From a virus (lineage: Duplodnaviria; Caudoviricetes), in the IMG/VR virus record IMGVR_UViG_3300049811_000087, positions 1-56,841 of that record: DNA of 56,841 bases, one strand, 5' to 3'. Each line of letters opens with the position of its first letter. Position 1 is the stretch's first letter. The translations under genes and the position numbers were made by a program. Positions 28,969-45,698 of the stretch are shown here, piece by piece. A model generated the notes under the pieces. The model was not told where the DNA came from. It ran no database searches and saw only the letters and a list, made by a program, of their open reading frames with translations.

Positions 28969-29189
28969 GCATGCTGGCTGTCACAATCAATGAAGCTACC
29001 GGAATGGCGTTGGGCTTTGCGCTTGGCGTTATATTTATGATTATTCTGTTCAAACTGGTTGGTTCACACGGAGTTATGTGTACCGAAGTCGATAACGAAG
29101 GTGATATAATCTACAGGCTCAAACTCGAAGAGGAACCTTCCGAGCTCAAAAACAAAAAGTTCATAATGTTCCGGGTGTCAAGTAAGTAG
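28965..29189 (+). CDS. Small membrane protein
   Basis: ATGA overlap; TM GMALGFALGVIFMIILF. Confidence 0.55.
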   Translation: MSMLAVTINEATGMALGFALGVIFMIILFKLVGSHGVMCTEVDNEGDIIYRLKLEEEPSELKNKKFIMFRVSSK

Positions 29190-29200
29190 TAACAATAAAT

Positions 29201-29218
29201 ACAACGCTTATAATGAGA
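29201..29218 (+). promoter_or_regulatory. Conserved phage promoter-like motif, copy 1
   Basis: ACAACGCTTATAATGAGA, upstream of RBS and ATG 29238. Confidence 0.8.
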
Positions 29219-29237
29219 CCCTACGGAAAGGTGAACT

Positions 29238-29525
29238 ATGTTCAACCCCTTCAAACGAGAAGAGGACCGTCAGTTGGATGTCCTGATCAATCGTGTGATC
29301 GACGACATGGAATTGTATGGCCCGGACTCTGAGGAATACCCGAGGTTGGTCGAGACCCTGAAGAAGCTTTACAAGCTGAAGGCGCAACAGAAGCCCCGGC
29401 GCGTGAGCCCAGACACGGTCCTGATCGTCCTCGGGAACATCCTTGGTATTCTGGTCATCGTTGCATACGAAGAGAAGCACGTTATCACATCCAAGGCCTA
29501 CTCGACTTTCGTGAAGAGGAACTAG
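29238..29525 (+). CDS. Membrane protein (cassette-type gene)
   Basis: GAAAGG RBS; VSPDTVLIVLGNILGILVIVAYE TM segment. Confidence 0.7.
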   Translation: MFNPFKREEDRQLDVLINRVIDDMELYGPDSEEYPRLVETLKKLYKLKAQQKPRRVSPDTVLIVLGNILGILVIVAYEEKHVITSKAYSTFVKRN

Positions 29526-29543
29526 TACCATACGGAGGTGCAA

Positions 29544-29590
29544 GCACAGGAGTTGTGTTGGAGAAATCTGACGCAGCTTCTGTGTTTTGC
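29544..29590 (+). terminator. Long GAAA-tetraloop hairpin, probable terminator
   Basis: GCACAGGAGTTGTGTTGGA-GAAA-TCTGACGCAGCTTCTGTGT followed by TTT. Confidence 0.6.
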
Positions 29591-29670
29591 ATTTCTAACA
29601 ACCATTCCTAAAATTGCCTGGGGGGATATTTTGGAAAAAGTTTCCAGGTTTAACAGGGGTGACAAAATTT

Positions 29671-29690
29671 ACAACGCCTATAATGGGAGA
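29671..29690 (+). promoter_or_regulatory. Conserved phage promoter-like motif, copy 2 (heads replication operon)
   Basis: ACAACGCCTATAATGGGAGA. Confidence 0.8.
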
Positions 29691-29747
29691 GTTCCTCACG
29701 TCTTATGACGTGACGTAGTTAACCCAACTACGACGACTTTCTTTTTT
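29685..29747 (+). ncRNA. Structured leader / small RNA (three-way junction plus U-tract)
   Basis: GGGAGAGTT/GACTTTCTT closes two perfect 7-bp hairpins, TCACGTC/GACGTGA and CGTAGTT/AACTACG. Confidence 0.55.
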
Positions 29748-29764
29748 GCATCGGAGGAAACGTT

Positions 29765-29926
29765 ATGAAAAAGGTTTCTGTTTATGAGTATAAAGGAGAA
29801 GCGTTTGTAATGGCAAACTCTAAGAATTACGGGTGCCTTCATTTTATCGGAGACGTTTTGCTCACTCTGCTGACTGGAGGTCTTTGGTTGATCTGGATTT
29901 TTGTTAGGGAGATGCGGCGTAGATGA
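29765..29926 (+). CDS. Small membrane protein (53 aa; not in ORF track)
   Basis: GGAGG RBS; ...FIGDVLLTLLTGGLWLIWIFVREMRRR; ATGA overlap with next gene. Confidence 0.7.
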   Translation: MKKVSVYEYKGEAFVMANSKNYGCLHFIGDVLLTLLTGGLWLIWIFVREMRRR

Positions 29927-30666
29927 TAAAAAACTACATTCGGCAAGCAAACAAGTACGCCTCTAAAAACGCCCCGGCGCTTATGACGGTCGTTGGCGTT
30001 GCTGGAGTCATCACAACAGCCTTTCTTTCGGCTAGTGCGTCGTTCAAGGCTGTGCGGGTAATTGATGCCGCAAAAGAAGAAAACGAGCCATCAGAAGAAC
30101 CGCTTGAACGACTCAAGGAAAACACAAAGCTGGTCTGGAAGCTTTATATTCCGCCAGTTACAACGGGTCTTGTCACAATCGGGGCGATTGCGTACGCACA
30201 TAAGCTCGGTTCAAAGAGAACTGCAGCAGCTATTAGTGCGTATACCATCACAGAACGAGCCTTTGCCGAGTATCGAAATAAGGTCGTTGAAGAAATTGGT
30301 TCGCACCGGGAACAAGTTGTTCGAGACGATATTGCTCGTGATGAAGTATCAAAGAAGTCATCTAACCAGATTATTCTGGCTGGGTCCGGCGAAGTAATGT
30401 GCTGTGAGTTGTACACCCGCAGATATTTCATGTCTGACATGGAGACACTCAGAAAAGCACAGAACGACATCAACAATAGGGCGATGCACGATCTTTATGT
30501 GACTCTTGACGAGTTTTACAATATCGTGAACCTTCCTAGTACCGCTCATTCTGGCGAATTGGGGTGGGATTCAGACCGCCTCATGGATCTGGAATTCTCA
30601 ACCGTTCTTTCCGAAGACGGGCGTCCATGTCTAGCGTTCAATTACAATTACATCAAACCCATTTAA
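29923..30666 (+). CDS. DUF6353-like protein
   Basis: NAPALMTVVGVAGV..TA..S...WKLYIP...Y...E..F.EYR...LDEFY...GW. Confidence 0.65.
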   Translation: MIKNYIRQANKYASKNAPALMTVVGVAGVITTAFLSASASFKAVRVIDAAKEENEPSEEPLERLKENTKLVWKLYIPPVTTGLVTIGAIAYAHKLGSKRTAAAISAYTITERAFAEYRNKVVEEIGSHREQVVRDDIARDEVSKKSSNQIILAGSGEVMCCELYTRRYFMSDMETLRKAQNDINNRAMHDLYVTLDEFYNIVNLPSTAHSGELGWDSDRLMDLEFSTVLSEDGRPCLAFNYNYIKPI

Positions 30667-30678
30667 TACGGAGGAATA

Positions 30679-30849
30679 ATGAAGAAGTTTGACTTTGATA
30701 TTTATAAGGAAGACACAGATCCTGCCGTCCATCAGATTGCTAAGCTTCTGCTTACGTCTCTGGGCAGCTGGATCACCGTCAAGCTAATTGAAACTGCGTA
30801 TAATTCGCATTTCAATCTCAACGAAAAGGAAAAAGATCAGGATGCTTAA
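30679..30849 (+). CDS. Hypothetical protein (56 aa; not in ORF track)
   Basis: GGAGG RBS; MKKFDFDIY... Confidence 0.55.
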   Translation: MKKFDFDIYKEDTDPAVHQIAKLLLTSLGSWITVKLIETAYNSHFNLNEKEKDQDA

Positions 30850-31282
30850 GCGTGCTATTACATACGAGGATTTCAATGGCGAAACGGCCACTGAGACTTT
30901 CTACTTCAATCTGTCCAAGCCTGAATTGGTTGAGTTAGAAGTTGATATGGAGGGTGGTCTCGGTAAGCACATCGAAAGAATTGCGGAGGCCGAGAATAAC
31001 AAGGAGCTCATTGCTCTGTTCAAGCGTGTCATTCTTATTTCCTATGGCATCAAGTCGGACGACGGTAAGAGGTTCGTTAAGTCGGACGAGCTTCGTGCGG
31101 AGTTCGAGTCTCATGCTGCGTACACGGCGTTGTTCATCGAGCTGGCCACAGACGCAAAAGCTGCTGCCGACTTTGTGAATGGCATTATGCCTTCTGACTT
31201 GGTGGAAGCCGCCAAAGCCGATCAAGACAAGCCCACTGGACCTCCTGAGATCACAAAGGAAGCTAATGGATTATCAGGGTAA
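30842..31282 (+). CDS. Conserved hypothetical phage protein
   Basis: MLKRAITYEDFNGE...FYFNLSK.EL...SYG.KSDDGKRFVKS. Confidence 0.7.
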   Translation: MLKRAITYEDFNGETATETFYFNLSKPELVELEVDMEGGLGKHIERIAEAENNKELIALFKRVILISYGIKSDDGKRFVKSDELRAEFESHAAYTALFIELATDAKAAADFVNGIMPSDLVEAAKADQDKPTGPPEITKEANGLSG

Positions 31283-31883
31283 TAGTCATAAGAAGAAGGA
31301 AGCAGAAACTTCTTCTCCGCCAGAAAAAAAGATTGAGCGACTTGAGCTCGAGAGCAAAGTTGTTTCTAGGAAGAAGCCCATTGGAGCTCGGGTAAAGTCA
31401 GTTTTCTTTGGCGGTGAGTTCGACTCTGCAGTTCGGTATATTGGCGCTGAAGTCTTACTTCCAGCGTTTCGAAACCTTTTGGTTGACGCAACCACCAAAG
31501 GTATCGAGCGTATGGTTTACGGGGAATCCAACTACCCAAGGCAGCGTACGCCCGAGTATCGTCCTCGAGTGACCTACAATAGCCCAATTAACCGAGGACC
31601 TCGAGCCAACATTCCAGACCAGCCAAGTCGCCCACAACGAGCTAGGCACGATGACACGGAAATCGTCTTCGGGTCTCGAGGAGATGCCGAGCTTGTTCTC
31701 GATCGCATGCAGGACATCATCGAACAGTACGTGGTTGCTTCTATGGGCGACCTAAACGAGATCGTTGGTCTGCCCACCTCGCCTATTGATAATAAGTGGG
31801 GCTGGGATAACGTTCGACATGCTGAAATTCGACAGACTCGGGATGGGTTCATACTCAATCTCCCGCCAGCACAACCAATCTAA
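31266..31883 (+). CDS. Conserved hypothetical phage protein
   Basis: MDYQGNSH after AAGGA RBS; ...DNKWGW...LNLPPAQPI. Confidence 0.7.
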   Translation: MDYQGNSHKKKEAETSSPPEKKIERLELESKVVSRKKPIGARVKSVFFGGEFDSAVRYIGAEVLLPAFRNLLVDATTKGIERMVYGESNYPRQRTPEYRPRVTYNSPINRGPRANIPDQPSRPQRARHDDTEIVFGSRGDAELVLDRMQDIIEQYVVASMGDLNEIVGLPTSPIDNKWGWDNVRHAEIRQTRDGFILNLPPAQPI

Positions 31884-31896
31884 CCGGAGGACTACT

Positions 31897-32790
31897 ATGA
31901 GATTTGTTCCTAATAAATTGACGAGAAGTATAAACCGCACCATCCTCAAGTCAAAGAAGAATTCGCCCACGTTTTTCTTTGCTGCGGGGGTCGTTGGAGT
32001 TATTGGTGGAACAGCTCTTGCTTGTCGAGCCACGCTTCAGCTTCCCGAAGCTCTTGATGATTTTCAGGAGGAGGTGAATGAGGTCAAGGACATGGGTGAG
32101 AGTCGGGTGGCAAATGATGCCGACACTTACAACGAGCGAGAGTTCTACCGTGATATGCTTTACGTTTACGGCAAGCACAGCATGGGTATCGCGAAGCTGT
32201 ACGCCCCGTCCCTTGCCGTTGGAGCTATTTCTATTGCTTCGTTGACCGGCTCGCATATTACGCTGCAGCGTAGAAACGCCTCACTTACAGCCGCCTTCAC
32301 CGGCGTTGCGACCGCATACGAAGAGTATCGGAAGCGTGTGCAAAAAGAGTTGGGTGCTGAGCATGAACTCGATATTTACCATGCTGCCGAAAACCGTGTT
32401 ATCACTAATTCCGACAACACCAAAGACGTAGCCAAGATTGTAGACCCGAACAAGTGGTCTGCATACGCTAGGATATTTGATGAGAGCTCTCCCTATTGGG
32501 AAAAGAGTCCTCATATTAATCGTCTTTATGTTCAGGCAGCACAGAACTACTTTAACAACAAGCTGCAGGTCCGAGGACACGTGTTTCTTAACGAGGTCTA
32601 CGATCACTTTGGGTTTGAACACACTCAGGCTGGTTCTGTTGTCGGGTGGATCTTAGGTCACGACGGAGACAACTTCATTGATTTCGGCATATTTGATGCC
32701 TACAATTCGGAGTTTGTAAATGGGCTAGAGCGGTCCATTGTCCTTGATTTCAATGTGGACGGCATCATATTTGATAAACTGGAGTCCTGA
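31897..32790 (+). CDS. DUF6353-like protein (paralogue of 29923..30666)
   Basis: KNSP..FFAAGVVGV...ACRAT...YEEYRKRV...HVFLNEVYD...VGW...LDFNVDG. Confidence 0.65.
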   Translation: MRFVPNKLTRSINRTILKSKKNSPTFFFAAGVVGVIGGTALACRATLQLPEALDDFQEEVNEVKDMGESRVANDADTYNEREFYRDMLYVYGKHSMGIAKLYAPSLAVGAISIASLTGSHITLQRRNASLTAAFTGVATAYEEYRKRVQKELGAEHELDIYHAAENRVITNSDNTKDVAKIVDPNKWSAYARIFDESSPYWEKSPHINRLYVQAAQNYFNNKLQVRGHVFLNEVYDHFGFEHTQAGSVVGWILGHDGDNFIDFGIFDAYNSEFVNGLERSIVLDFNVDGIIFDKLES

Positions 32791-33626
32791 TGAACTCATT
32801 ACAATTTTATATTTCAGAATTCACGAAAAACAAGACCTTGGTCAGGGCTACTGCTTTTTGCGGTGGCTTTGGCTTTGGTTTCTATCTAGCTAGTCAGAAA
32901 ACAACCGAAATTGTTATCTATCCGGATGGCGGAGAACCAAACGACGTCAAAGTCGACGAGGATGATAATCCAGACGACGCCGTAATCCTCCATTTTCAAA
33001 AGCGTTTAGACGAGATTGCGGCTGAAGAAGAGGTAGCCGCTTTTGACGACAATCCGGTTATTGACCCGCCAGTAAACGACCCAAAAGATATTCGTGTCGA
33101 TTTAGACAAACTTCGGCATAGAGACGCTCTTATTGAAGAGTTTGGGTATACGGAAGGTATGCGTCGATACCAGAAAGAGTATTCTTTAGGCATGGACACG
33201 ACACCTTCAGAAGAGGCACAGATAGAAAACGTTTTCGGAAAAGACCCTAAGCCGTGGGATCAAGAAGCAGAAAAGGCAGCTCGCACCAACTCGGAAATTT
33301 ACGTTCTGCACAAAGACGAGTTTTGGCGAGACGAGATGGACTATACCCAAACGACTCTCACTTACTATTCCGGCGATGATATTCTTGTAGACCAAGATGA
33401 GGTCCCGATCTACAACTACCGGAACGTTGTCGGAGAGTTGCAGTTCGGGTATGGGTCCGAGGATCGAAATGCCTTCTATGTGCGAAATCATATTCTCAAG
33501 GCAGAATACGAGATTCTCCATGATCGAGGAAGTTATGCTATTGAAGTGCTCGGGTTAGAGTACGAAGAGCAGCAAGAAAGGGCTTCCTTAAAACACTCTC
33601 TCGGTAAATTCAGACCGGATGATTGA
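32790..33626 (+). CDS. Acidic hypothetical protein
   Basis: TLTYYSGDDILVD...YVRN...EYEI; overlapping stop/start. Confidence 0.65.
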   Translation: MNSLQFYISEFTKNKTLVRATAFCGGFGFGFYLASQKTTEIVIYPDGGEPNDVKVDEDDNPDDAVILHFQKRLDEIAAEEEVAAFDDNPVIDPPVNDPKDIRVDLDKLRHRDALIEEFGYTEGMRRYQKEYSLGMDTTPSEEAQIENVFGKDPKPWDQEAEKAARTNSEIYVLHKDEFWRDEMDYTQTTLTYYSGDDILVDQDEVPIYNYRNVVGELQFGYGSEDRNAFYVRNHILKAEYEILHDRGSYAIEVLGLEYEEQQERASLKHSLGKFRPDD

Positions 33627-34153
33627 TCATGGAAGAGTCATTGGAGACCCTGTACTTCGAGTGGCTCTACGCAAAGGTGATGTTATCCGATCAGCCTGCT
33701 CAGTCATACACAAATCTAATTAAAGCTCTATATGATACTGAATTTGTGTGGCTTGTAGTTGGCGATGACAACAGAGCTCAAGATGGACTAGACCTTCGCA
33801 GTGAGTTTTTGGAGGCAGCTCAATTTGACCCTGATTGTGTGTACGATTTCATGTTTGGCTGTACTGTTCTTGAAATGCTGATTGCGTTCTCGAGAAGAGC
33901 CGAGTTTCAAACTGATATTCGTCCTAACGAATGGTTTTGGGAGTTCGTTACAAATCTCGGACTAGCAGACCATCACGATGATGACATAGATATCCAGTCG
34001 GTTAACGATATTCTATACAACTTTGTGTGGAGAACATATGATTATACTGGTTTAGGCGGGTTATTTCCTCTTAACAATCCGCTTGTGGACCAAACTGAGA
34101 TAGAAATCTGGTATCAATTCTGCGCCTATCTTGTTGAGAAAGGCTTTGACTAG
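33623..34153 (+). CDS. Conserved hypothetical phage protein
   Basis: YFEWL...DDNRAQDGLDLR...LEMLIA...GGLFPL...EIWYQ. Confidence 0.65.
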   Translation: MIMEESLETLYFEWLYAKVMLSDQPAQSYTNLIKALYDTEFVWLVVGDDNRAQDGLDLRSEFLEAAQFDPDCVYDFMFGCTVLEMLIAFSRRAEFQTDIRPNEWFWEFVTNLGLADHHDDDIDIQSVNDILYNFVWRTYDYTGLGGLFPLNNPLVDQTEIEIWYQFCAYLVEKGFD

Positions 34154-34165
34154 AAGGGAGGTTCT

Positions 34166-37100
34166 GTGGATTTTTATAATATCGTGGTTAAAGAAAAGAA
34201 AGATGGCGCACTGCAGATCCGCCCTGATTTCAAGGTTGGTAGGTCCAAAGATCTTATGACTCGTGGCGGGGCTTTCTATGCCATCTGGGACGAGGAAAAA
34301 GGTCTTTGGTCTACCGATATTTATGATGTTCAGCGCTTGGTAGACGCCGATCTATACAAGTACCAAGAAGAGATGCTTAATCGAGATGGGGTTAGCCCAA
34401 CCGTTGCTACACTGGAGTCCAACTCTACGAAGCTTTGGGATGAGTTCCAGCGGTTTGTTCGTAATAGCGGTAACAACAGCCACAATCTGGATGAGGTTCT
34501 GACGTTTGCTAACACCGAAGTCAAGAAGACTGACTACGTGAGTAAGCGCCTTCCATATTCTCTTCACCCAGGCAAGACGGACGCATGGGATCAGATCGTG
34601 GGTACGTTATATTCTGAAGAGGAGCGTGAGAAAATTGAATGGGCTATCGGCGCAGTGGTTTCAGGAGATTCTAAGCATATCCAGAAGTTCCTGGTTTTCT
34701 ACGGACCTCCAGGTTCTGGAAAGTCCACCATCCTCAACATTATCCAGAAGCTGTTCGACGGTTACACGGCGGTATTTGATGCCAGAGAACTCGCTGGCAA
34801 TAATAATGCTTTTGCCACTGCAGCCTTTAAGTCAAATCCTCTGGTCGCCATCCAACACGACGGAGATCTCTCCCGAATCTACGACAACACGAAGCTGAAT
34901 TCGATTGTTGCTCATGAGACTATGACGGTCAACGAAAAGTATCGGGCGCCGTTTGAGACCAAGTCAAACGCATTTTTGTTCATGGGAACAAACCTTCCCG
35001 TTAAGATTACAGACGCAAAGTCTGGTATTATTCGGAGGCTAATTGATGTTGTTCCTACTCAACGGACGATTGATCATAATACCTATCATATTCTCATGGA
35101 CCAGATTGATTTTGAGCTGGGAGCAATTGCTTATCTTTGTCTGGAACGATACTTGGCCCTTGGGAAGAATTATTATAGTTCGTATCGGCCAACTGAAATG
35201 ATGCTTCAGACGGACGTCTTCTATAACTTTGTGGAGGCGCACTTTGATATTTTCAAATTAGAAGACGGCGTCACCTTGAAGCGAGCTTGGACTCTTTACA
35301 AAGAGTTCTGTGCTGACACGGGAATCGAAAAGACTCTTCCCCAGTACAAGATCCGAGAGCACCTCAAGGATTATTTCGAAGAGTTTCATGATCGAATCAA
35401 GATAGATGGCGTAGACGTTCGCAGTTACTACAAAGGATTTAAACATTTGGCTCCTGGACCACCAAGGTCTCAGATGCCTGTTAAAACTGACGATCCTTAC
35501 GTTATTGAGCTTGGTGAACACCCCTCGGTATTCGATGAGATGTTCGCAAACCAGCCTGCTCAGTATGCAAACGAGGAAGGTACACCATCTAAGAAGTGGG
35601 AGAACGTAACCACAAAGCTTCGAGATATTGACACCTCGAAACTTCACTACGTTCAGGTGCCAAAAGAACATGTTGTCATTGATTTTGACCTGACCGATGA
35701 AGATGGAAACAAGTCGCTGGAAGCTTGTTTGGAAAAAGCAAAGACTTGGCCCGCAACTTATGCGGAATTGAGTAAAAGTGGTAATGGTCTTCATCTTCAC
35801 TACAACTATCATGGCGATGTTGAAGCGTTGTCTAACGTTTATGGGGTTGGGATCGAAGTCAAAACTCTTCTTGGTAATTCTTCACTGAGAAGGCAGCTAA
35901 CAAAATGTAATATGGTTAATGTTACGCCTCTTTACGAAGGGCTTCCAACTAAGGAGAAAAAGGTGATTGATGCTCAGAGCATAAAGAGTGAACGAGCGCT
36001 GCGAGATCTGATCTCCAGGAACCTTCGAAAAGAAGTTCATCCGGGGACAAAGCCTTCCATTGATTTCATCCACAAGATTTTGAGTGATGCGCACAACAAT
36101 GGGTTGTCTTACGACGTAAGAGACATGCGTGGCGATATTCTTAGTTTTGCTGCGATGAGTACTAATCATGCTACCGACTGCATCAAGTTGGTGCAAAAGA
36201 TGGAATTTGTCGGGCAGAACGAGATGCCCGTGATTACTTCAGCTGACGAGAAACCTTTGGTCTTCTTTGATGTTGAGGTATATCCTAATCTCTTTGTCGT
36301 TTGCTGGAAAGCCGAAGATTCTGCTGACGTTGCTAAGTTGATTAACCCGTCCTCGGAAGAAATTGAAGAGCTCCTTACCCATAAGCTTGTGGGCTTCAAC
36401 AACCGTCGATACGACAATCATATTCTCTATGCTCGATATCTTGGGTATTCGATTGACGAGCTTTATAACCTCAGCAACCGAATCATCAACGGAGGCTCAA
36501 GCCGAGATGTCATGTTTGGAGAAGCCTACAATCTTTCGTATGCGGATATTTACGACTTTAGCTCCAAAAAGCAGGGCTTGAAGAAGTTCCAAATCGAGCT
36601 GGGTATCCTTCACATGGAGCTCGATATTCCCTGGGATAAACCTGTTCCTGAAGACCTTTGGGATAAGGTCGTAACATATTGTCAGAACGACGTGATGGCA
36701 ACCGAAGCGGTCTTTAAGAATCGTATTCAAGACTTCAACGCCAGGAAGATTCTCGCCGAATTGTCGGGTCTTTCAGTTAATCATACCACGCAAGCCCATA
36801 CGGCTAAGATCATATTTGGTGATGATAAACGACCCCAAGATAAGTTTGTTTACACCGATCTAAGCAAAGAGTTCCCCGGTTATATATTTGACGGGAAAGA
36901 GAGTTACTATAAGGGCGAGATCACAGGTGAAGGTGGTTACGTATATGCTGAGCCGGGTATTTATGAGAATGTGGCGCTTCTTGACGTTGCGAGTATGCAT
37001 CCGACGTCCATTGAGTGCCTCGACTTATTTGGGCCGTATACGAGCAGATTCGCTGACCTTAAAGCGGCACGTTTGGCAATTAAGCATAAGGACTACGCAA

Positions 37101-37900
37101 CAGCCGGGCGCCTCCTGGACGGTAAGCTCGGACCGTTTGTCGGAGGCACTGATGAAGACCTGGAAGCTCTGTCTTACGCTCTTAAGATCGTAATCAACAT
37201 TGTCTATGGTTTGACCAGCGCTCGATTCGACAACCCCTTCAGAGATTTCCGAAACAAGGATAACATTGTCGCCAAGCGAGGCGCTTTGTTCATGATCGAT
37301 CTCAAAGAAGCGGTGCAAGATCGAGGCTTTACGGTTGCACATATTAAGACGGACTCCATCAAGATCCCGAACGCAACGCCGGAGATCATTGAGTTTGTCA
37401 CCCAGTTTGGTCGAGAGTACGGATACGACTTCGAGCACGAGGGAACCTATGACAAATTCTGCTTGGTCAACGATGCGGTTTATATTGCTAAAGAAGATAA
37501 TCACTGGAATGCTGTTGGGGCTCAGTTTCAACATCCGTACGTCTACAAGACTTTATTTACGCATGAGCCGATTGAATTCGAGGATTACTGCGAAGCCCGA
37601 AGCGTTATTCAAGGGGTCATGTACCTCGACTTCGTTGGGGACGGCAATCTCTCCGATTTCAAGCACGTCGGAAGGACTGGAATGTTCGTTCCAGTTAAAT
37701 CCGGAGGCGGCTCGCTTCTTAGAGTCAAGGATGAAAAAGCCTACGCCGTGACAGGGACCAAAGACTATAAGTGGGTCGAGTCTTCTGTTGCTAAGGAAAA
37801 CCCAGACATTGAGGTAGACTACTCATATTTCGAAGACCTTGTTACAAAGGCCAAAGAAGCAATTGAGAAGTTTGGCTCTTTTGATGAGTTTGTGAGTTAA
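34166..37900 (+). CDS. Multifunctional replicase: SF3 (D5-like) helicase + AEP primase + 3'-5' exonuclease + family B DNA polymerase
   Basis: GPPGSGKST; VIDFD...SKSGNGLHLHY; FFDVEV, GFNNRRYD, YCQNDV; LDVASMHP, KIVINIVYG, IKTDS. Confidence 0.88.
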   Translation: MDFYNIVVKEKKDGALQIRPDFKVGRSKDLMTRGGAFYAIWDEEKGLWSTDIYDVQRLVDADLYKYQEEMLNRDGVSPTVATLESNSTKLWDEFQRFVRNSGNNSHNLDEVLTFANTEVKKTDYVSKRLPYSLHPGKTDAWDQIVGTLYSEEEREKIEWAIGAVVSGDSKHIQKFLVFYGPPGSGKSTILNIIQKLFDGYTAVFDARELAGNNNAFATAAFKSNPLVAIQHDGDLSRIYDNTKLNSIVAHETMTVNEKYRAPFETKSNAFLFMGTNLPVKITDAKSGIIRRLIDVVPTQRTIDHNTYHILMDQIDFELGAIAYLCLERYLALGKNYYSSYRPTEMMLQTDVFYNFVEAHFDIFKLEDGVTLKRAWTLYKEFCADTGIEKTLPQYKIREHLKDYFEEFHDRIKIDGVDVRSYYKGFKHLAPGPPRSQMPVKTDDPYVIELGEHPSVFDEMFANQPAQYANEEGTPSKKWENVTTKLRDIDTSKLHYVQVPKEHVVIDFDLTDEDGNKSLEACLEKAKTWPATYAELSKSGNGLHLHYNYHGDVEALSNVYGVGIEVKTLLGNSSLRRQLTKCNMVNVTPLYEGLPTKEKKVIDAQSIKSERALRDLISRNLRKEVHPGTKPSIDFIHKILSDAHNNGLSYDVRDMRGDILSFAAMSTNHATDCIKLVQKMEFVGQNEMPVITSADEKPLVFFDVEVYPNLFVVCWKAEDSADVAKLINPSSEEIEELLTHKLVGFNNRRYDNHILYARYLGYSIDELYNLSNRIINGGSSRDVMFGEAYNLSYADIYDFSSKKQGLKKFQIELGILHMELDIPWDKPVPEDLWDKVVTYCQNDVMATEAVFKNRIQDFNARKILAELSGLSVNHTTQAHTAKIIFGDDKRPQDKFVYTDLSKEFPGYIFDGKESYYKGEITGEGGYVYAEPGIYENVALLDVASMHPTSIECLDLFGPYTSRFADLKAARLAIKHKDYATAGRLLDGKLGPFVGGTDEDLEALSYALKIVINIVYGLTSARFDNPFRDFRNKDNIVAKRGALFMIDLKEAVQDRGFTVAHIKTDSIKIPNATPEIIEFVTQFGREYGYDFEHEGTYDKFCLVNDAVYIAKEDNHWNAVGAQFQHPYVYKTLFTHEPIEFEDYCEARSVIQGVMYLDFVGDGNLSDFKHVGRTGMFVPVKSGGGSLLRVKDEKAYAVTGTKDYKWVESSVAKENPDIEVDYSYFEDLVTKAKEAIEKFGSFDEFVS

Positions 37901-37902
37901 TT

Positions 37903-38088
37903 ATGAAATTTGGAGAATGGCAAGCAAGTCGTGGTATTCAACCTTGGATAACAAAACCGCAGCATATTGCTCCGGCTATAGACGCTCTGACTGCGGCTAT
38001 ATTTAAAGCTGCAGACGGTATGAAATCATTTGGAGAAACCGTGGCTAGGCTTTCAGCATGCTTTAATTCAAACAAGGAGGATATTTAG
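37903..38088 (+). CDS. Hypothetical protein (paralogue of 44877..45071)
   Basis: F.EWQ.S.GI.PW..KP shared. Confidence 0.55.
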   Translation: MKFGEWQASRGIQPWITKPQHIAPAIDALTAAIFKAADGMKSFGETVARLSACFNSNKEDI

Positions 38089-38456
38089 TGGATTCAGATA
38101 TGTTGGAAGAAGTAATTAGCAAACAATTTGTTATTTGTAGTGAGCTTCTTTCTCAAAAAGCTAAAGAGTATGCGCCCGTAGATCGGCTTCATAATTTCCG
38201 AGTCGCTGCCGAGATGCAGAATGTGCGACTTGAGACGGCTTTGGCCGGTATGATGGCTAAGCATACCGTTAGTCTCTACGACCTTATTGAGCGTACACAA
38301 AAGGGGGAGGTGTTCGGTAGCGATATTTGGGTTGAAAAGATTACCGATCACATGAACTATCTCCTTCTCCTCAAGGCGATTCTTGTTGAGGAATGGGATA
38401 AACCCACAATAACCGTTAATACTATTACTGAAAGGGATGTTGCCTATCATGGTTAG
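38088..38456 (+). CDS. All-alpha nucleotide-modification-associated / MazG-like protein (putative)
   Basis: K..EYA..D.LHNF...K...EKITD..NY.LL pattern. Confidence 0.45.
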   Translation: MDSDMLEEVISKQFVICSELLSQKAKEYAPVDRLHNFRVAAEMQNVRLETALAGMMAKHTVSLYDLIERTQKGEVFGSDIWVEKITDHMNYLLLLKAILVEEWDKPTITVNTITERDVAYHG

Positions 38457-38916
38457 AGAAGAAGCAAAGACTTTTATGGTGGAGGATGCTCAGCTCATCT
38501 TTCGTAATTTCTCGGGAAAGGAGGGGCAGTACAACCGAGAAGGAGACCGAAACTTCGCCGTTATTCTTGACGATGAGTCGGCACAGGCCATGATCGAGGA
38601 CGGTTGGAACATTCGTTTCCTGGAGCCTCGGGAGGAGGGCGATACCACAACGCCTTATATATCAGTCACTGTCAAGTTCGACATCATGCCTCCGACGGTT
38701 ATCATGATTACTTCTTCTGGGCGTGTCCGTCTTGATGAAGACTCTGTCGCCGTTCTTGACTGGGCGAACATCCAGACTGTGGATCTAATTGGTCGAGCGT
38801 ACGAGTGGACTGTTAACGGTAAGAGCGGCATCAAGGCTTACCTGAAGTCCATGTACGTGACCATCGAAGAGGACGCCCTCGAGCGTAAGTACGCCAACGT
38901 GGAGGACAAGACCTGA
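38449..38916 (+). CDS. Single-stranded DNA-binding protein (putative)
   Basis: FRNFSG....YN.EG.RNF...GWN...KAYLK; downstream of the replicase. Confidence 0.6.
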   Translation: MVREEAKTFMVEDAQLIFRNFSGKEGQYNREGDRNFAVILDDESAQAMIEDGWNIRFLEPREEGDTTTPYISVTVKFDIMPPTVIMITSSGRVRLDEDSVAVLDWANIQTVDLIGRAYEWTVNGKSGIKAYLKSMYVTIEEDALERKYANVEDKT

Positions 38917-39083
38917 TGTGGCCTATGGTTATCGGAGCCCTCTTATTTGCTATCGGCGTTTTGTTTGGCTTCGGAATCTCGCACGCTTCTTTCAAGTTGA
39001 TTCTTGAAGGCGACGAATCTCCGTTTGACGATTACAACCGATCTTATTCATCTATAAAGGAAAAGGAACACAATGCAGTTTGA
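38916..39083 (+). CDS. Small membrane protein (55 aa; not in ORF track)
   Basis: GGAGG RBS, TGATG overlap; MWPMVIGALLFAIGVLFGFGI. Confidence 0.55.
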   Translation: MWPMVIGALLFAIGVLFGFGISHASFKLILEGDESPFDDYNRSYSSIKEKEHNAV

Positions 39084-39333
39084 TACTTATGCCCGTAAGC
39101 CGTTCGTTGTGGAGGCCGTGGAGATCACGGAGGAGAACATCGAGCAGGTTGCTGAGTTTGTCGGTACTGTCCGAAAGAAGGATGACGGAACGTCGTTCAT
39201 TCAGGTCGACCGTCGCCTTATCCCCAACGTCTACCGAGTTTACCCTGGGTTCTTCATGACGAAGATGGGCGATAACGTTCGTTGCTACTCTCCCAAGATC
39301 TTCAGGGATCAGTTCGAGTTGATTGAAAGCTGA
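39073..39333 (+). CDS. Hypothetical protein
   Basis: Y.RKPFVVEAVEIT...F...FE pattern of small phage beta proteins. Confidence 0.65.
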   Translation: MQFDTYARKPFVVEAVEITEENIEQVAEFVGTVRKKDDGTSFIQVDRRLIPNVYRVYPGFFMTKMGDNVRCYSPKIFRDQFELIES

Positions 39334-39351
39334 TAAAGGAGTTTAAAAACA

Positions 39352-39546
39352 ATGAAGATCAAGAGTCCTGAACAGTTGGTTATTGGTGATGTTATTCCTA
39401 ACTGGGGAGCCGATCTGGTTGTTAAACACACAGCGCCGGAGCCTCTGGGGTATGACATTCCTCTTAGTATTCGGGTTGAGTTTGAAAGCGGCAGGTATGC
39501 CAATTACCCTGTAGGAACTGCAATCCGAGTTGTAGATAAAGGGTAA
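39352..39546 (+). CDS. Hypothetical protein
   Basis: AAGGAG RBS; LVIGDVI SH3-like start. Confidence 0.55.
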   Translation: MKIKSPEQLVIGDVIPNWGADLVVKHTAPEPLGYDIPLSIRVEFESGRYANYPVGTAIRVVDKG

Positions 39547-39554
39547 CAAAATCT

Positions 39555-39575
39555 ACAACGCCTATAATGAAGAGA
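39555..39575 (+). promoter_or_regulatory. Conserved phage promoter-like motif, copy 3 (heads accessory/tRNA operon)
   Basis: TAACA-N6-ACAACGCCTATAATGAAGAGA. Confidence 0.8.
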
Positions 39576-39634
39576 AAGGCGATATCGAATGATATTACCT
39601 GTGGATTCCCATCCACACCTCTTCTTTTATTTTT
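39569..39634 (+). ncRNA. Structured leader / small RNA (three-way junction plus U-tract)
   Basis: GAAGAG/CTCTTC closes GGCGATATC/GATATTACC and TGTGGAT/ATCCACA hairpins, then TTTTATTTTT. Confidence 0.55.
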
Positions 39635-39651
39635 CCATGAAAGGATTAAGA

Positions 39652-39864
39652 ATGACATTAACTTCTAAGGTTGGCAAGTTCATTTTTGCTGACCACTGTG
39701 AGCTGTCCAAAGCTAAGCTGATTCGGGATACCGTGATGGGGCAAATCCTGAATCCGCCCGAGGGCAGTCAAAGGCTTCCGAGAGATGAAAAGGCTATTTT
39801 CACTTTCGTAGCCAGTGCATTCAAAAAGGACGCTCCCAAGCGGGAGGCCATCGTCCTTTCATGA
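39652..39864 (+). CDS. Hypothetical protein
   Basis: AAAGGA RBS before ATG 39652. Confidence 0.55.
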   Translation: MTLTSKVGKFIFADHCELSKAKLIRDTVMGQILNPPEGSQRLPRDEKAIFTFVASAFKKDAPKREAIVLS

Positions 39865-40265
39865 TCGTTTCAGGGCGCTACAACCTTTCGCCAAGAGTTG
39901 TACAGTCCGCAGCGGAACGCCCCCAGCACCCCTGGTCGGACCGCCCTGTGACTTTGATCAAACAGTGCCTTTGTTCATGGCCTTGTGTCGGTAAAGACCA
40001 CGTAGTGTATTTTTCCTCTCCCGGCTTGGATACACGTGTACCTCGTAAAAATCTGGTGACTTGATCCTTTACGATGATGACACTATACGTCCGTGGTTGC
40101 CTTAACTCGCAGTCTGGTGGAGTCTGTAGTGACGATCGATGAGTTCCTCTCGTCATGGTACCTTTTAAATCGTCGAGTCATTCGGCGGGCCAGATTGTTA
40201 TTTCGCCTCTGTAGGGCGTCTCTCACCCAGGCTGAGCATCCTGGGGTATATCAAAACTGCTCCAC
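39865..40265 (+). ncRNA. Candidate ~400-nt structured non-coding RNA with pseudoknots
   Basis: No RBS-supported ORF; many nested helices and two pseudoknot pairings read by eye (see findings). Confidence 0.5.
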
Positions 40266-40308
40266 TTCGCTCAAAAAAATTCACCATTTAATAATAGGAG
40301 AAATACTA

Positions 40309-40524
40309 ATGGACCGCGTTTTTGTTATCATTGAAGTTCTATACAAGAATGGTGGCGACTGGCCTCACGACTCCGACAGGGTTCAGTATGGGCCATTTAT
40401 GACTGGTGCAGATGCTATGGAGTTCTACATTGAAGGTGTTAAGATGGGTAAATTCTACCCAAATCATTTTTTGACGCGAAGAGTCAACCCACCGTCTTAT
40501 GCCCCTACTTACCAGGAGAGTTAA
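40309..40524 (+). CDS. Hypothetical protein
   Basis: AGGAG RBS before ATG 40309. Confidence 0.6.
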   Translation: MDRVFVIIEVLYKNGGDWPHDSDRVQYGPFMTGADAMEFYIEGVKMGKFYPNHFLTRRVNPPSYAPTYQES

Positions 40525-40808
40525 TGAGCATTTTTGTTGATGAACCAAAAGTCGTGCCGTTTTCTGACGAAGAGACGTCTACTGACAAGACCGAAGCTGC
40601 TCATATTGTCAAAACGGAGGGTAATGAAGACGCGACAGCTAAAGTCCTTGAAGCCCGTATTCACGGACTCGTTTTGGAAGCCTTGTGTGGATATCGATGG
40701 ATACCTTCACGAGATCCGAAGCAACTCCCGGTATGTGAAGAATGCAAAGAGATATACGAGACATACAAGATGTTCAACGACGGACTGAACGAAAGACCTA
40801 GTGTATGA
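40524..40808 (+). CDS. DUF3039 family protein (actinobacterial, Zn-binding)
   Basis: HIVK...ALCG..WIPSRDP...PVCEECKEIYE. Confidence 0.75.
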   Translation: MSIFVDEPKVVPFSDEETSTDKTEAAHIVKTEGNEDATAKVLEARIHGLVLEALCGYRWIPSRDPKQLPVCEECKEIYETYKMFNDGLNERPSV

Positions 40809-41050
40809 AGATTATCATTAACTCGCCTGCTGAAAACCCGGGATACGCAACTTCCATAAATACTGGAGCAATGCAAATCACAGTGCTCGAGTGTTTTAGC
40901 GGGGTCAGGTTTATTACTAAAGATGGTGAAATTATGACTATATCTATGCGAGACTCTGGTTTTGAAGGAACCTATCAAGATGCACCTGGGTCTCCTGTTC
41001 ATGAATTCGAGTACAAAAATGGAGAACACGTTGGTAAGTTTATTAATTAG
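40805..41050 (+). CDS. Hypothetical protein
   Basis: ATGA overlap. Confidence 0.55.
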   Translation: MKIIINSPAENPGYATSINTGAMQITVLECFSGVRFITKDGEIMTISMRDSGFEGTYQDAPGSPVHEFEYKNGEHVGKFIN

Positions 41051-41069
41051 GAAACAATAAGTTACTGTT

Positions 41070-41258
41070 ATGAGTGCTAGAATTCCAAAAGAACTAACCG
41101 TTCGAGTTTACGACAAAGACGGAAATCTTGTAGAAAAAACAACAAGTCGAGCTATTAGCACACCAAAAGGAATTGGTAGGCTTTTAATGAGCGAAGGCAT
41201 AAAAGCAGTTGAAGTACATCATGTTGACGGCACATCGACTGAATTTTCGATAAAGTAA
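41070..41258 (+). CDS. Hypothetical protein
   Basis: ORF fills gap in operon. Confidence 0.45.
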   Translation: MSARIPKELTVRVYDKDGNLVEKTTSRAISTPKGIGRLLMSEGIKAVEVHHVDGTSTEFSIK

Positions 41259-41286
41259 ATAACTCTTTTTAACAACAGGAGGATAA

Positions 41287-41607
41287 ATGAGTAAAGCAAA
41301 CCTTATTTTAACCAGTATCATCGGAGTTCTCCTTTGTGTTGGTGTCATTATCGGAGGCTGGCAGCTTGGCTGGTGGCTCAAGAGCGAGACTGTAAATCGC
41401 AATGCTGTGATCTTGCAGGACTCGTACGGACGTCAGAACGCTCTCGTTGAGGGTATTCTTGACGATGTCCGTGAAACTGAGATGGGTAATCTTCCGCCTC
41501 AGCAGGTTGTTGCCATCACAAGCCAGATCTGTGATTCAGCAGCAAAGCTCAGTGGTTCCATTCAACTGCCGCCAAACGCGGCTTCATTTGTAGCGAGGGA
41601 ATGTTAA
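41287..41607 (+). CDS. Membrane protein
   Basis: AGGAGG RBS; N-terminal TM; C-terminal Cys pair. Confidence 0.65.
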   Translation: MSKANLILTSIIGVLLCVGVIIGGWQLGWWLKSETVNRNAVILQDSYGRQNALVEGILDDVRETEMGNLPPQQVVAITSQICDSAAKLSGSIQLPPNAASFVAREC

Positions 41608-41608
41608 T

Positions 41609-42169
41609 ATGAAGAAGACAATGGTTATGATTCTGGTTGCACTCAGCCTTGTAGCTGTGGGTTGTACCGGAGCAGAAGACAACGCGACGGAGAAGGATAA
41701 TCGGACTGCTCAGGATCAGTTGACGCAGTTCCAGCAGGCTCAGCCTGTTCCAGTGTTCAGTCAGTCTCAGCTTCGGCAAAACCTGATTGATATTGCAACC
41801 GCGCAGGCAGAGGCTACGGCAACTACGTCGTTCTTTTTCAATCAGGGCATCATTGATCCGATTCATAGTTGCCCAAGCGTTGGGTTTCCAATTCCAGGAA
41901 CGTTCCAGCTCACCAACCCAGAAGGAGCAGTTCGAATCGGGGGAGTAGACTCGACTCGATACGTTCTTCCTCAGCTTGAGTCAACTGGTGTTTACAGTGG
42001 CGAAACTACTGGCACAACCGTTATCTGCATCGACGAGAATGGTAAGGGCTACGCGCACTGGTGGGAGGGGTTTGTCTCTACCGTTGCTGGCCCCGCCACT
42101 TGGAATGCAGAAGCCAAGCAAATTGATATGACCGGGTCTCCTACTGCGGAATTTGATACTGGTAAGTAG
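41609..42169 (+). CDS. Lipoprotein
   Basis: MKK + hydrophobic stretch + LVAVGC lipobox. Confidence 0.7.
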   Translation: MKKTMVMILVALSLVAVGCTGAEDNATEKDNRTAQDQLTQFQQAQPVPVFSQSQLRQNLIDIATAQAEATATTSFFFNQGIIDPIHSCPSVGFPIPGTFQLTNPEGAVRIGGVDSTRYVLPQLESTGVYSGETTGTTVICIDENGKGYAHWWEGFVSTVAGPATWNAEAKQIDMTGSPTAEFDTGK

Positions 42170-42240
42170 TAACAATTTTCCTCTGACCCGGAGGAAACTG
42201 GTACTGAATCGCTTGGTCCTGGATCCCAAGTTTACATTCA

Positions 42241-42299
42241 GATCAGCCACACTGATAAGTCGCTACAACGTCGAAACAGTAAGGCAGTTTTTGGCGATC
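42241..42299 (+). ncRNA. Degenerate hammerhead-ribozyme-like element upstream of tRNA-Lys
   Basis: Stem I GATC(A)GCCA/TGGCGATC; core CTGATAA...GAAAC...GTT; imperfect stems II and III. Confidence 0.25.
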
Positions 42300-42313
42300 C
42301 TGCTGGGTATTTC

Positions 42314-42387
42314 GCTCCTCTAGCTCAATTGGTTAGAGCAACGGACTTTTAATCCGAAGGTTCTGGGTTCAAGTCCCAGGGGGAGCA
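42314..42387 (+). tRNA. tRNA-Lys(UUU)
   Basis: GCTCCTC/GGGGAGC acceptor, GCTC/GAGC D stem, CTTTTAA anticodon loop, GTTCAAGT T loop; CCA not encoded. Confidence 0.9.
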
Positions 42388-42423
42388 CTGTAATCAACCA
42401 TTTTTAATTCAAAGGAGAGTGCC

Positions 42424-42636
42424 ATGATTGATTTGGTTCCAGTAAAAGTACACAACGTTTTTACGCAGCAGAGCGATGATACGACTTGGTGTGATTTTAT
42501 CATCCCAGTTCTCAACATGGCCGGACTTACTACCGCGGATATTCGTTTCGATATCTGGGAAGTCGATGACCCAGATGACCCTCGTATCGAAGCGTTTGCA
42601 GAGCGAGTGTTCGAGCTGTTTTTGGAGGGGCTCTAA
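42424..42636 (+). CDS. Hypothetical protein
   Basis: AAGGAG RBS. Confidence 0.6.
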   Translation: MIDLVPVKVHNVFTQQSDDTTWCDFIIPVLNMAGLTTADIRFDIWEVDDPDDPRIEAFAERVFELFLEGL

Positions 42637-42857
42637 TGCCCGTTATTAAAGACCCTGATTCAAAGGCCGCCGTTCATCTTGCTGATCCATCAAGAGAGTC
42701 TGGGCCTTACGGTCCTTATGCGTACTGTCGTTTTATCAAGAATAGACAGATTACAACCAACATCGACGAAGTTACCTGTCTGCATTGCATCAAGAAATTC
42801 AAAGGAATGCCTCATCTTGACCGAAAAGTTGAAAGAACCGCTTGGTCTGATTCATAG
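42636..42857 (+). CDS. Small Zn-binding protein
   Basis: VH...C...VTCLHC. Confidence 0.55.
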   Translation: MPVIKDPDSKAAVHLADPSRESGPYGPYAYCRFIKNRQITTNIDEVTCLHCIKKFKGMPHLDRKVERTAWSDS

Positions 42858-42863
42858 TTCGTT

Positions 42864-42996
42864 TGACAGAGTGTTGAAAAACACACTAACAACCAAACCC
42901 AAGTGACGACTGCGTGCGGTTGCTCTGTCATCCGAATAGTCGGGGTAGGTCTGTGGACAGGTAAGAGGCATCCCAGCGCCCGCCTACCTTGACTAT
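42864..42996 (+). ncRNA. Intergenic structured RNA candidate (two closed domains)
   Basis: TGACAGAG/CTCTGTCA and a 14-bp ATAGTCGGGGTAGG/CCTACCTTGACTAT stem. Confidence 0.35.
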
Positions 42997-43013
42997 ATTT
43001 AATAGGAGGAAAA

Positions 43014-43247
43014 TTGAGTAAGTTAAAAGAAGTTGAAGTTCTTATTCAAAAACATAAAAGACAACTAGAAAAAGATGGGGGTATTTGGGACCCAGACGAG
43101 TTTTCTCTCGTTGTCACCCAAGAAGAGTGGCGAGACATTCAAATAAACCCTTATATTCTAGAGCTTTTCGGTGGTTCTCAAATCGCAGCCCAAGAATTTA
43201 TAAATACCAAAAAGTTGTTTGGTGTGAAGATAGAAATCGAGGAGTAG
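43014..43247 (+). CDS. Hypothetical protein
   Basis: AGGAGG RBS with TTG start; similar to the next gene. Confidence 0.55.
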   Translation: MSKLKEVEVLIQKHKRQLEKDGGIWDPDEFSLVVTQEEWRDIQINPYILELFGGSQIAAQEFINTKKLFGVKIEIEE

Positions 43248-43250
43248 CTA

Positions 43251-43475
43251 ATGGTCCAAAAAGTTAGAGATACAATCCGAGATCTTCGTCGTAGAGCTGG
43301 ACTAGACGCAGAACCATATGTGCCAGCACAACTTCCAATTCGTTTGACTCAAACACAGTGGGACGCTTTTCTGGTGGACCCATATTTGGCGGTTCTTCAC
43401 TCACCAGAAGGAATCGCTTTAATTGCCAATAACCGACAGTACCTCGGGCACCCTATTGAGATTGTTGAGAATTGA
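43251..43475 (+). CDS. Hypothetical protein (paralogue of 43014..43247)
   Basis: TQ..W.....PY...L...G..IEI shared. Confidence 0.55.
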   Translation: MVQKVRDTIRDLRRRAGLDAEPYVPAQLPIRLTQTQWDAFLVDPYLAVLHSPEGIALIANNRQYLGHPIEIVEN

Positions 43476-43681
43476 TGTACCTCGTACACTATTTGTTTTA
43501 TAAGATCAACTACGACGCTGAGACTGATTGGGGATATTACACTGACGTCAAAGCCAAGTCGTTTGGTTCGCCTCAAGAAGAAAACAGCTTTACCAGTGAG
43601 ATGCGCAAGCAGGGTTACATGACCAAGCGGGTCCCAGAGGATATCTACAATCTTGCTTGTTGTAATGTAGAGGTTATTTAA
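43472..43681 (+). CDS. Hypothetical protein
   Basis: Overlapping ORF in operon. Confidence 0.5.
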   Translation: MMYLVHYLFYKINYDAETDWGYYTDVKAKSFGSPQEENSFTSEMRKQGYMTKRVPEDIYNLACCNVEVI

Positions 43682-43682
43682 A

Positions 43683-43919
43683 ATGTTCATTCAACTACGT
43701 GGTGATGGAAAGCGATTGATCAACGTAACTCAGATCAACACGTTGGCTATATCAATCACTCCTGAAAAGCAGTTTTGTGTTTCTTTCATAATGATCAACG
43801 AGCTCGAGATCAACTCAGAGAAGTATGACACTATAGAAGAGGCACAAGACGAATACGACGATATTTACAGGAAACTTTATCAAGTACTTAATCCTAGACA
43901 AACACTAACAAGGAGATAA
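43683..43919 (+). CDS. Hypothetical protein
   Basis: MFIQL...IN..QI; similar to 44415..44618. Confidence 0.55.
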   Translation: MFIQLRGDGKRLINVTQINTLAISITPEKQFCVSFIMINELEINSEKYDTIEEAQDEYDDIYRKLYQVLNPRQTLTRR

Positions 43920-43925
43920 TTAAAA

Positions 43926-44312: not shown

Positions 44313-44321
44313 CTCCCTCAA

Positions 44322-44397
44322 GGGCCGGTAGCATGTTCTGGTAAATGCACCGAGCTTATATCTCGGCGATAGGTGGGTTCAAATCCCCCCCGGCCTA
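44322..44397 (+). tRNA. tRNA-Ile(UAU)
   Basis: GGGCCGG/CCGGCCT acceptor, GCAT/ATGC D stem, CCGAG-CTTATAT-CTCGG anticodon arm, GTTCAAAT T loop. Confidence 0.85.
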
Positions 44398-44414
44398 CTA
44401 ACAGAAAGAAACTT

Positions 44415-44866: not shown

Positions 44867-44876
44867 AAGGAAACTA

Positions 44877-45071: not shown

Positions 45072-45074
45072 TCT

Positions 45075-45149: not shown

Positions 45150-45150
45150 C

Positions 45151-45692: not shown

Positions 45693-45698
45693 CCTAAC

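Follow-up and report, generated by a model that had tools for sequence, protein, structure and literature searches.

In phage lambda, the terminator tR' lies close behind the promoter PR' and ahead of a long operon, a short transcript (6S RNA) is the default product and antitermination by Q gives read-through. The put RNA of HK022 consists of two adjacent stem-loops soon after the promoter at the head of long operons; to our knowledge, no helix encloses them and put does not itself terminate transcription. Stem-loops at the very 5' end stabilise mRNAs such as ompA and ermC, and the origins of T7 combine a phage promoter with an AT-rich tract. Here we describe a 63-nucleotide (nt) leader at positions 29685-29747 of the IMG/VR virus record IMGVR_UViG_3300049811_000087 (Duplodnaviria; Caudoviricetes), whose entire length of 56,841 nt was analysed and is referred to below as the window. 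The leader directly follows a TATAAT box and heads a replication operon. It is a real, non-random and conserved element, and its predicted conserved core is a helix closed by the 5' end of the leader and followed by a U-run (hereafter a closed leader), with the two hairpins inside the helix as a variable insert. Our tentative reading, to which we give somewhat less than an even chance, is that of a promoter-proximal terminator or attenuator that would gate long operons.

Lambda PR'-tR' with Q is the closest of the described systems in logic, the leader likewise appearing to place a promoter and then a near terminator before a long operon. It differs in that the 5' arm of the closed leaders forms the very start of the putative transcript, the promoter differs from those of the host, a search for Q-like proteins recognised none here, and the element stands at three operon heads and not at one. 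The likeness to put, drawn in a preliminary description of this locus made by reading the sequence, is one of shape only (two adjacent stem-loops after a promoter); in closed leaders the stem-loops are replaceable or dispensable, whereas the enclosing helix and U-run are conserved, and the corresponding slot of relatives holds leaders that lack inner hairpins or carry other domains, so that two stem-loops do not constitute the conserved core. With ompA and ermC, closed leaders share a helix that begins at the RNA's 5' end or beside it, if transcription starts at the G after TATAAT, but they always carry a U-rich run after the 3' arm and also occur in stand-alone non-coding units. The promoter resembles those of T7 and SP6 in being long, conserved and repeated, in occurring in a phage with its own polymerase, and in placing an AT-rich element directly before a purine-rich start (GAGAG, GGGAGA or GAAGAG); the polymerase here is, however, a two-barrel YonO-like enzyme and not a Pol I-like single-subunit one, and the start is a predicted one. 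Thermus phage P23-45 also has two-barrel polymerases and strongly conserved promoter motifs before many small early genes; according to the accessible part of the source, conserved promoters lie upstream of 14 and 7 mapped starts, and an unusual conserved termination motif is reported for one of the polymerases (bioRxiv 10.1101/2022.12.01.518664). P23-45 belongs to another phage group with other motifs, and that part of the source describes no closed leader.

The first closed leader and its surroundings are composed as follows.
29660-29684, plus strand: promoter copy before leader 1, with an upstream box (29660-29664), ACAACGCC (29671-29678) and TATAAT (29679-29684)
29685-29747, plus strand: closed leader 1, 63 nt, a three-way junction followed by a U-run
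29686-29693, plus strand: 5' arm of the closing helix, GGAGAGUU, beginning at the second base after TATAAT and pairing with 29735-29742, in a register shared by the 21 leaders compiled below
29696-29713, plus strand: inner hairpin 1, a perfect 7 base pairs (bp) with a 4-nt loop, pair probabilities 0.85-1.00
29714-29732, plus strand: inner hairpin 2, abutting hairpin 1, a perfect 7 bp with a 5-nt loop, pair probabilities 0.88-1.00
29735-29747, plus strand: 3' arm of the closing helix (29735-29742) and U-run (29742-29747, U6)
29753-39546, plus strand: ribosome-binding site (GGAGG, 29753-29757) and 9.8-kb replication operon, beginning with the ATG at 29765

The purine-rich start of leader 1, GGGAGAGUU, lies directly 3' of TATAAT, and the pyrimidine-rich GACUUUCU that follows hairpin 2 and precedes the U-run pairs with it, bases 2-9 after TATAAT joining bases 51-58 around both 7-bp hairpins. 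The minimum free energy and centroid structures calculated with ViennaRNA are both this three-way junction, at -22.9 kcal/mol as compared with -11.7 +/- 3.0 kcal/mol for shuffled sequences (z = -3.73, none of 200 as stable). Pair probabilities in the closing helix are 0.77-1.00 for the isolated leader, while the inner hairpins stay at or above 0.81 with or without downstream bases. The three-way junction with abutting hairpins and U-run that the preliminary description had placed after TATAAT is thus present as stated and folds as proposed, and the operon of ~10 kb said to lie behind it extends over 9.8 kb (29765-39546). At the gathering threshold, Rfam finds three tRNAs and no other family in the window; at E <= 10, it gives two chance-level matches in 29500-39700, one of which overlaps leader 2 on the minus strand (19 bits, the threshold being 100). 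A blastn search of 29400-30700 against named phages returned no match. The exact combination of promoter and leader 1 was found at no locus in IMG/VR, and there is therefore no close relative in which to follow covariation within the inner hairpins of leader 1.

Closed leaders occur at three of the 15 promoter copies in the window (-10 elements at 29679, 39563 and 53103), and each heads a multi-gene block. The second and third are located as follows.
39544-39568, plus strand: promoter copy of the next operon, starting at the stop codon of the upstream open reading frame (ORF), with TATAAT at 39563-39568
39569-39634, plus strand: closed leader 2, 66 nt, -21.0 kcal/mol, z = -5.57, none of 200 shuffles as good
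53084-53108, plus strand: diverged promoter copy, with ACAACG at 53095-53100 and TATAAT at 53103-53108
53109-53150, plus strand: closed leader 3, -15.3 kcal/mol, z = -3.25, 2 of 200 shuffles as good

All three leaders form a helix from the first or second base after TATAAT and carry a U-rich run after its 3' arm. The closing helix of leader 2 (39569-39574 with 39619-39624) comprises six Watson-Crick pairs from base 1 with pair probabilities of 0.98-0.99; it encloses two inner hairpins, is followed by a U-rich tail (39625-39634), and heads a 6.6-kb block (39652-46246) with three tRNA genes. Leader 3 is a simple hairpin from base 1 (53109-53142) with a U-rich tail, which also scored as terminator-like in the terminator listing of the window; the block that it heads runs from 53162 through an exonuclease gene to an RNA polymerase gene. 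No sequence conservation links the inner hairpins of the window leaders to one another or to relatives. An ORF listed at 39589-39864 has its ATG inside hairpin 1 of leader 2; the in-frame ATG at 39652, which follows the usual AAAGGA at the usual spacing, is more likely to be its start.

The remaining 12 promoter copies provide an internal control, as they reach a Shine-Dalgarno sequence 7-23 nt after TATAAT without a closed leader.
46248-49812, plus strand: eleven short-leader promoter copies, each in front of a unit with one to three small ORFs
29183-29225, plus strand: the twelfth short-leader copy

Most of the small-ORF units at 46.2-49.8 kb end in a hairpin-and-U-run terminator, and such cassette terminators in this genome have stems of 9-15 bp and loops of 4-10 nt. 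The earlier statement that single-gene cassettes lack the leader is borne out by these 12 copies; what had escaped notice were the leaders at 39569-39634 and 53109-53150.

The promoter itself is a motif of ~30 nt made up of an upstream box, ACAACGCY, TATAAT and GAGAGAC. A repeat search of the window gave 14 direct-repeat copies (29183-29225, 29653-29695, 39537-39579 and eleven within 46248-49812), to which the diverged copy at 53084-53108 is added as the 15th; all are on the plus strand. A promoter of this type (box, ACA, 5 nt, TATAAT, GAGA) is present in related IMG/VR and metagenome loci and in five of the eight polymerase-bearing named phages examined.
Gordonia phage Fazel: 5 promoter copies in 6.7 kb
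Arthrobacter phage Paella: 20 strict promoter matches
Arthrobacter phage Nason: 7 promoter copies
Streptomyces phage DrGrey: 6 promoter copies
Lactococcus phage P118: 9 promoter copies, in a genome of 33% G+C

Faecalibacterium phage FP_oengus and the partial record contig89 yielded no such sites, and Microbacterium phage Count yielded one. Among 96 unique sites, 88 match TTGACA at no more than three of six positions at a spacing of 16-18 nt, five have TGn before the -10 element, and 25 lack a purine at positions 6-8 after TATAAT. To judge from this composition, the promoter is specific to the phage family and not of ordinary host type; the TATAAT noted in the preliminary description does stand at 29679-29684, as part of a long phage-specific promoter without a -35 element and not of an ordinary host promoter. 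A promoter that lacks a -35 element and is common to phages of two host phyla fits recognition by a shared phage polymerase, for which the two-barrel polymerases of P23-45 offer a precedent, and we infer that it is read by the YonO-like enzyme encoded by the phage.
53981-56653, plus strand: YonO-like single-chain (two-barrel) RNA polymerase, 890 amino acids (aa), PHROG 4291, 1210 bits

Phage-polymerase promoters are characterised by a long conserved motif that recurs ahead of many genes where the phage has a polymerase of its own, and the present promoter shows these traits. The 890-aa protein has a DFDGD motif at residue 511, a C-terminal helix-turn-helix (HTH_23) and a weak Pfam RdRP match; a sequence search of the PDB with it gave no meaningful match. 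Its homologues were found in 250 phage records, with hosts including Arthrobacter, Gordonia, Streptomyces, Lactococcus and Faecalibacterium. The accessible part of one preprint treats this protein as possibly a YonO-like RNA polymerase and its gene as a signature of the phage group (bioRxiv 10.1101/842583); the word 'promoter' is absent from its main text, and the 2017 YonO paper, in its accessible part, states that the promoter recognised by YonO is still to be determined. The literature searched contains no description of promoters, leaders or terminators of this phage group, preprint supplements (with possible promoter lists) being outside the scope of that search. The copy at 49796 (49774-49801) is the most host-like of the 15, with TTGTCA-16-TATAAT matching 11 of 12 sigma-70 consensus positions. 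A terminator-like hairpin (50053-50069) lies between the short gene of this promoter and the block at 50082-53074, which has no promoter of this class.

Conservation of the closed architecture was assessed in related loci fetched from IMG/VR, metagenomes and named phages, which are given L-numbers below (L024 is Fazel; L071 and L075 are Paella). A helix of at least 5 bp starting 0-2 nt after TATAAT, followed by at least seven U in 10 nt, is found at 22 of 93 unique promoter-like sites from the window and these loci, as compared with a mean of 1.12 (standard deviation 1.1, maximum 4) in 100 dinucleotide shuffles. When the helix is required to start at offsets of 4-6, 7-9, 10-12 or 13-15 nt, the matches fall to 7, 4, 1 and 1. 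About four of the 22 sites are doubtful, through pairing to the terminator of the next unit or otherwise. A chance origin of the leaders is ruled out by the shuffle and offset controls.

When five three-way-junction leaders were aligned with MAFFT, RNAalifold gave no pairs; as the leaders are not alignable by sequence, a script was used to compile their closing helices. The 21 leaders compiled were selected for a U-rich tail, and its presence within 0-3 nt of the 3' arm in all 21 is thus not independent evidence. The closing helix encloses 4-126 nt across the set and 39-126 nt in 16 leaders, and helices of 17, 14, 13, 8 and 7 bp all start exactly at base 1, the long ones being entirely Watson-Crick except for one G-U pair in the 13-bp helix. 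The closing pairs covary: position 5 is G-C in 11 leaders, A-U in eight and G-U in two, and positions 3, 4 and 6 also alternate between G-C and A-U. The slot running from promoter through leader and small membrane ORF to a DUF6353 gene holds a 5' helix with a U-rich tail in every case, in three forms.
Simple hairpin: L002, L007, L016
Three-way junction: the window, L005, L008, Lactococcus phage P118
Conserved RNA of ~100 nt: L009, L037, L045

In P118, two near-identical three-way-junction leaders are distinguished by a change from U-A to C-G in hairpin 2; their folds beat shuffles only modestly (z = -1.9, 9 of 200). The preliminary description had looked to relatives for conservation of the structure, and this is seen for the enclosing helix and U-run but not for the stem-loops, which are absent (L002, L007, L016) or replaced by inserts of up to 126 nt.

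A distinct RNA occupies the slot in some of these relatives. It is a closed RNA of ~100-120 nt with several hairpins, conserved loops and a U-run at its end, has no Rfam match, and was found at the following positions.
L008, 1853-1970
L013, 1629-1747
L033, 81-200
L045, 548-666
L015, 324-450
L032, 865-984
L024, 570-683
L037, 2217-2320
L009, 2219-2322

In a five-sequence seed of this RNA, compensatory change is seen at 13 of 27 predicted pairs, and a covariance model (R1) built for it gives nine matches in relatives at E <= 1.3e-13, four of them beyond the seed, and no match in the window at E <= 1. In Fazel, it sits after a tRNA-like element (L024, 485-551) that starts 6 nt after TATAAT and scores 42.8 bits in Rfam but is not called by ARAGORN. 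Rfam searches of ten related loci gave only tRNA or tRNA-like matches and weak chance matches. Genes for tRNA directly follow the U-rich tail at L004 1734-1817, L006 2086-2247 and L007 2017-2178, and are those of tRNA-Leu(UAA) and tRNA-Lys(UUU).

Two further arrangements in relatives bear on function. At Paella L075, promoter, closed RNA and U-run form a stand-alone non-coding unit, with the next promoter following at once. In at least nine relatives that carry a closed leader, a hairpin and T-run lie directly upstream of the promoter, so the leader is not needed there to stop transcription from upstream. The closed RNAs of Paella (L071 1515-1690 and L075 1515-1640) have closing helices of 17 and 13 bp from base 1; three tandem ~32-nt repeats that contain internal dyads lie within one, and two ~20-nt repeats within the other.

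In the proposed mechanism, transcription would start at the first G after TATAAT, placing the leader within the operon's own transcript, and the 5' end of that transcript would be the 5' arm of a terminator-shaped helix with a U-run directly after its 3' arm. A polymerase starting here would yield a closed RNA of ~60 nt and stop, unless termination is overcome or fails, and long operons may thereby be gated or throttled while single-gene cassettes on like promoters are not. We infer the start at G, use by the phage polymerase, actual termination and regulated read-through from the layout of the sequence. This reading is supported by the confinement of closed leaders to operon heads (3 of 15 copies), the other 12 copies running straight to a ribosome-binding site; by the cassette terminators of this genome, which have a similar style of 3' arm followed by a U-run; and by the Paella unit, the upstream terminators in relatives, the large inserts and the non-host-like promoter. 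Like an intrinsic terminator, leader 1 has a stem-loop with a direct U-tract, its 3' arm ending within U6. Of the roles offered in the preliminary description, an attenuator or ~60-nt RNA is the best supported, and it may, as suggested there, time middle-gene expression, while the two stem-loops on which it had centred are not the conserved feature.

Several observations weigh against this interpretation. The closing helix of leader 1 is weak (its eight pairs are two G-C, three A-U and three G-U), inclusion of 28 nt of downstream sequence lowers its pair probability to 0.52-0.70, and the branched insert of 41 nt within it is unlike efficient terminators; the G+C-rich stem and short loop of intrinsic terminators are lacking in leader 1. 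Essential genes lie behind the leaders (DNA polymerase here; tRNA genes in L004, L006 and L007), which implies that read-through must be substantial, and no antiterminator was recognised among 90 proteins scanned against PHROGs, in which most small proteins matched nothing. A promoter of this class also precedes the gene for the polymerase, so that making the first enzyme would be a problem if it does not arrive with the virion and host polymerase cannot read these promoters as well. The host -10 consensus is TATAAT, and if a host polymerase initiated ~7 nt downstream, the 5' arm would be excluded from the RNA. None of the three window leaders has a convincing separate terminator upstream, and they could therefore merely end the upstream units. 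Finally, five seemingly unrelated viral contigs share the overlap of hairpin and U-run with canonical promoters, so the overlap exists where the 5' arm is probably not transcribed.

A narrower form of the gate, in which the leader would be specific to the YonO-like two-barrel polymerase of this phage supercluster, is in our estimate unlikely. Here the nascent 5' end would pair back into the terminator stem, and the enclosed domain (two hairpins in the window, a conserved ~100-nt four-way RNA in relatives) would decide between stopping and running on into middle and late operons.

The main competing explanation, which we consider a possible though rather improbable one, is an overlapping terminator and promoter, or insulator. 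According to this view, host sigma-A polymerase starts ~7 nt after TATAAT, so that the 5' arm falls within the discriminator, the helix arises solely in RNA reading through from upstream and ends the upstream unit, and what remains in the operon's own transcript is the two 5' hairpins and a U-rich leader. Folded from +7, leader 1 indeed forms only the two hairpins (-17.2 kcal/mol), the -10 element is a perfect host one, and the units that precede the three window leaders have no other good terminators. When the collection was scanned for TATAAT, GAGAGG, 4-34 nt, a complementary arm and a U-rich tail, eight loci were obtained as against one for a non-complementary control; five of the eight, in apparently unrelated phages, have TTGAC-17/18-TATAAT promoters. 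In these five contigs (L076, L077, L078, L081 and L082), a GAGAGG...CCUCUC hairpin with a U-run begins immediately behind TATAAT, and an ATG directly follows the U-run in four. In three of ~18 closed-leader tails, the sequence behind the helix can pair with 5-6 bases of TATAAT, which would matter only in read-through RNA. What this explanation accommodates poorly is the terminator already standing directly before the promoter in at least nine relatives, the size of the inserts (39-126 nt in 16 of 21 leaders, as against the 4-8-nt loops of cassette terminators in these genomes), the stand-alone promoter-RNA-U-run unit of Paella, and promoters that lack a -35 element and TGn and, at 25 of 96 sites, a purine at positions 6-8.

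Alternatively, transcription may start at G and the helix serve 5'-end protection only, shielding long mRNAs from 5'-dependent decay of the RNase J/E type without any termination. The helix starts at base 1 or 2 whatever the length of the insert, and long units carry it but single-gene cassettes do not, as this would predict. The U-rich run 0-3 nt after the 3' arm in the 21 leaders and the stand-alone non-coding units are both left without explanation, and we regard this alternative as improbable.

It is very unlikely that the leader is a cis-acting RNA of put-like or EAR-like type that binds polymerase and alters termination along the operon. Its position directly after the promoters of long operons would suit such a role, as would the ~100-nt RNA in the slot of relatives with its conserved loops and compensatory changes. 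The window operons, however, have no excess of terminator-like sites (11 seen against 14.8 expected by chance), which makes processive antitermination past the leader seem unnecessary; the inner hairpins share no conserved sequence, and the sole invariant part is terminator-shaped.

The least probable alternative, for which we see hardly any likelihood, is an element acting at the DNA level (palindromes as an operator or, with the promoter and T-run, a transcription-activated replication origin): there are two perfect palindromes (7-4-7 and 7-5-7), the replication module adjoins leader 1 and a Paella closed RNA holds tandem repeats with dyads, but matches to the palindromes with three mismatches are at chance (4 against 2.1 and 1.9 expected), relatives keep a closing helix of RNA type (G-U pairs, covariation) and not the palindromes, and the T-run is merely 6-10 nt long. 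The operator idea was set aside, as each palindrome is found once in the window.

The window (56.8 kb, 46% G+C) has virtually all its genes on the plus strand, with genes for lysin, tail-fibre-like, terminase, portal, capsid/protease, tail and tape-measure proteins in its left half. The operon at 29765-39546 encodes a small membrane ORF, two DUF6353 genes, a primase-helicase/DNA polymerase (1244 aa, 34166-37900) and an annealing protein. The record opens with a hairpin and T-run (1-30) and ends inside an ORF that begins at the stop codon of the polymerase gene (56653-56841); the contig has therefore been cut, and the join of the polymerase block to the lysin and structural genes lies outside the sequence. 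Direct repeats of 88 and 62 nt at 80-87% identity, 1.2 kb apart in the tRNA-bearing region (43930-44088 and 45161-45313), are probably paralogous small genes.

A large group of phages infecting Actinobacteria and Firmicutes has YonO-like single-chain RNA polymerases as its signature. At least one undescribed conserved phage RNA family is found in the corresponding slot of relatives. If the overlapping terminator and promoter were the correct explanation, the element would be an ordinary function in an unusual, compact layout. The leader and the 15-copy promoter together offer a testable model, with a ~30-nt promoter, a probable start at G and a terminator-shaped gate of long operons. Should the gate prove specific to the YonO-like polymerase, a promoter, a start site and a signal for termination or antitermination would be in hand for the first time for polymerases of this family.

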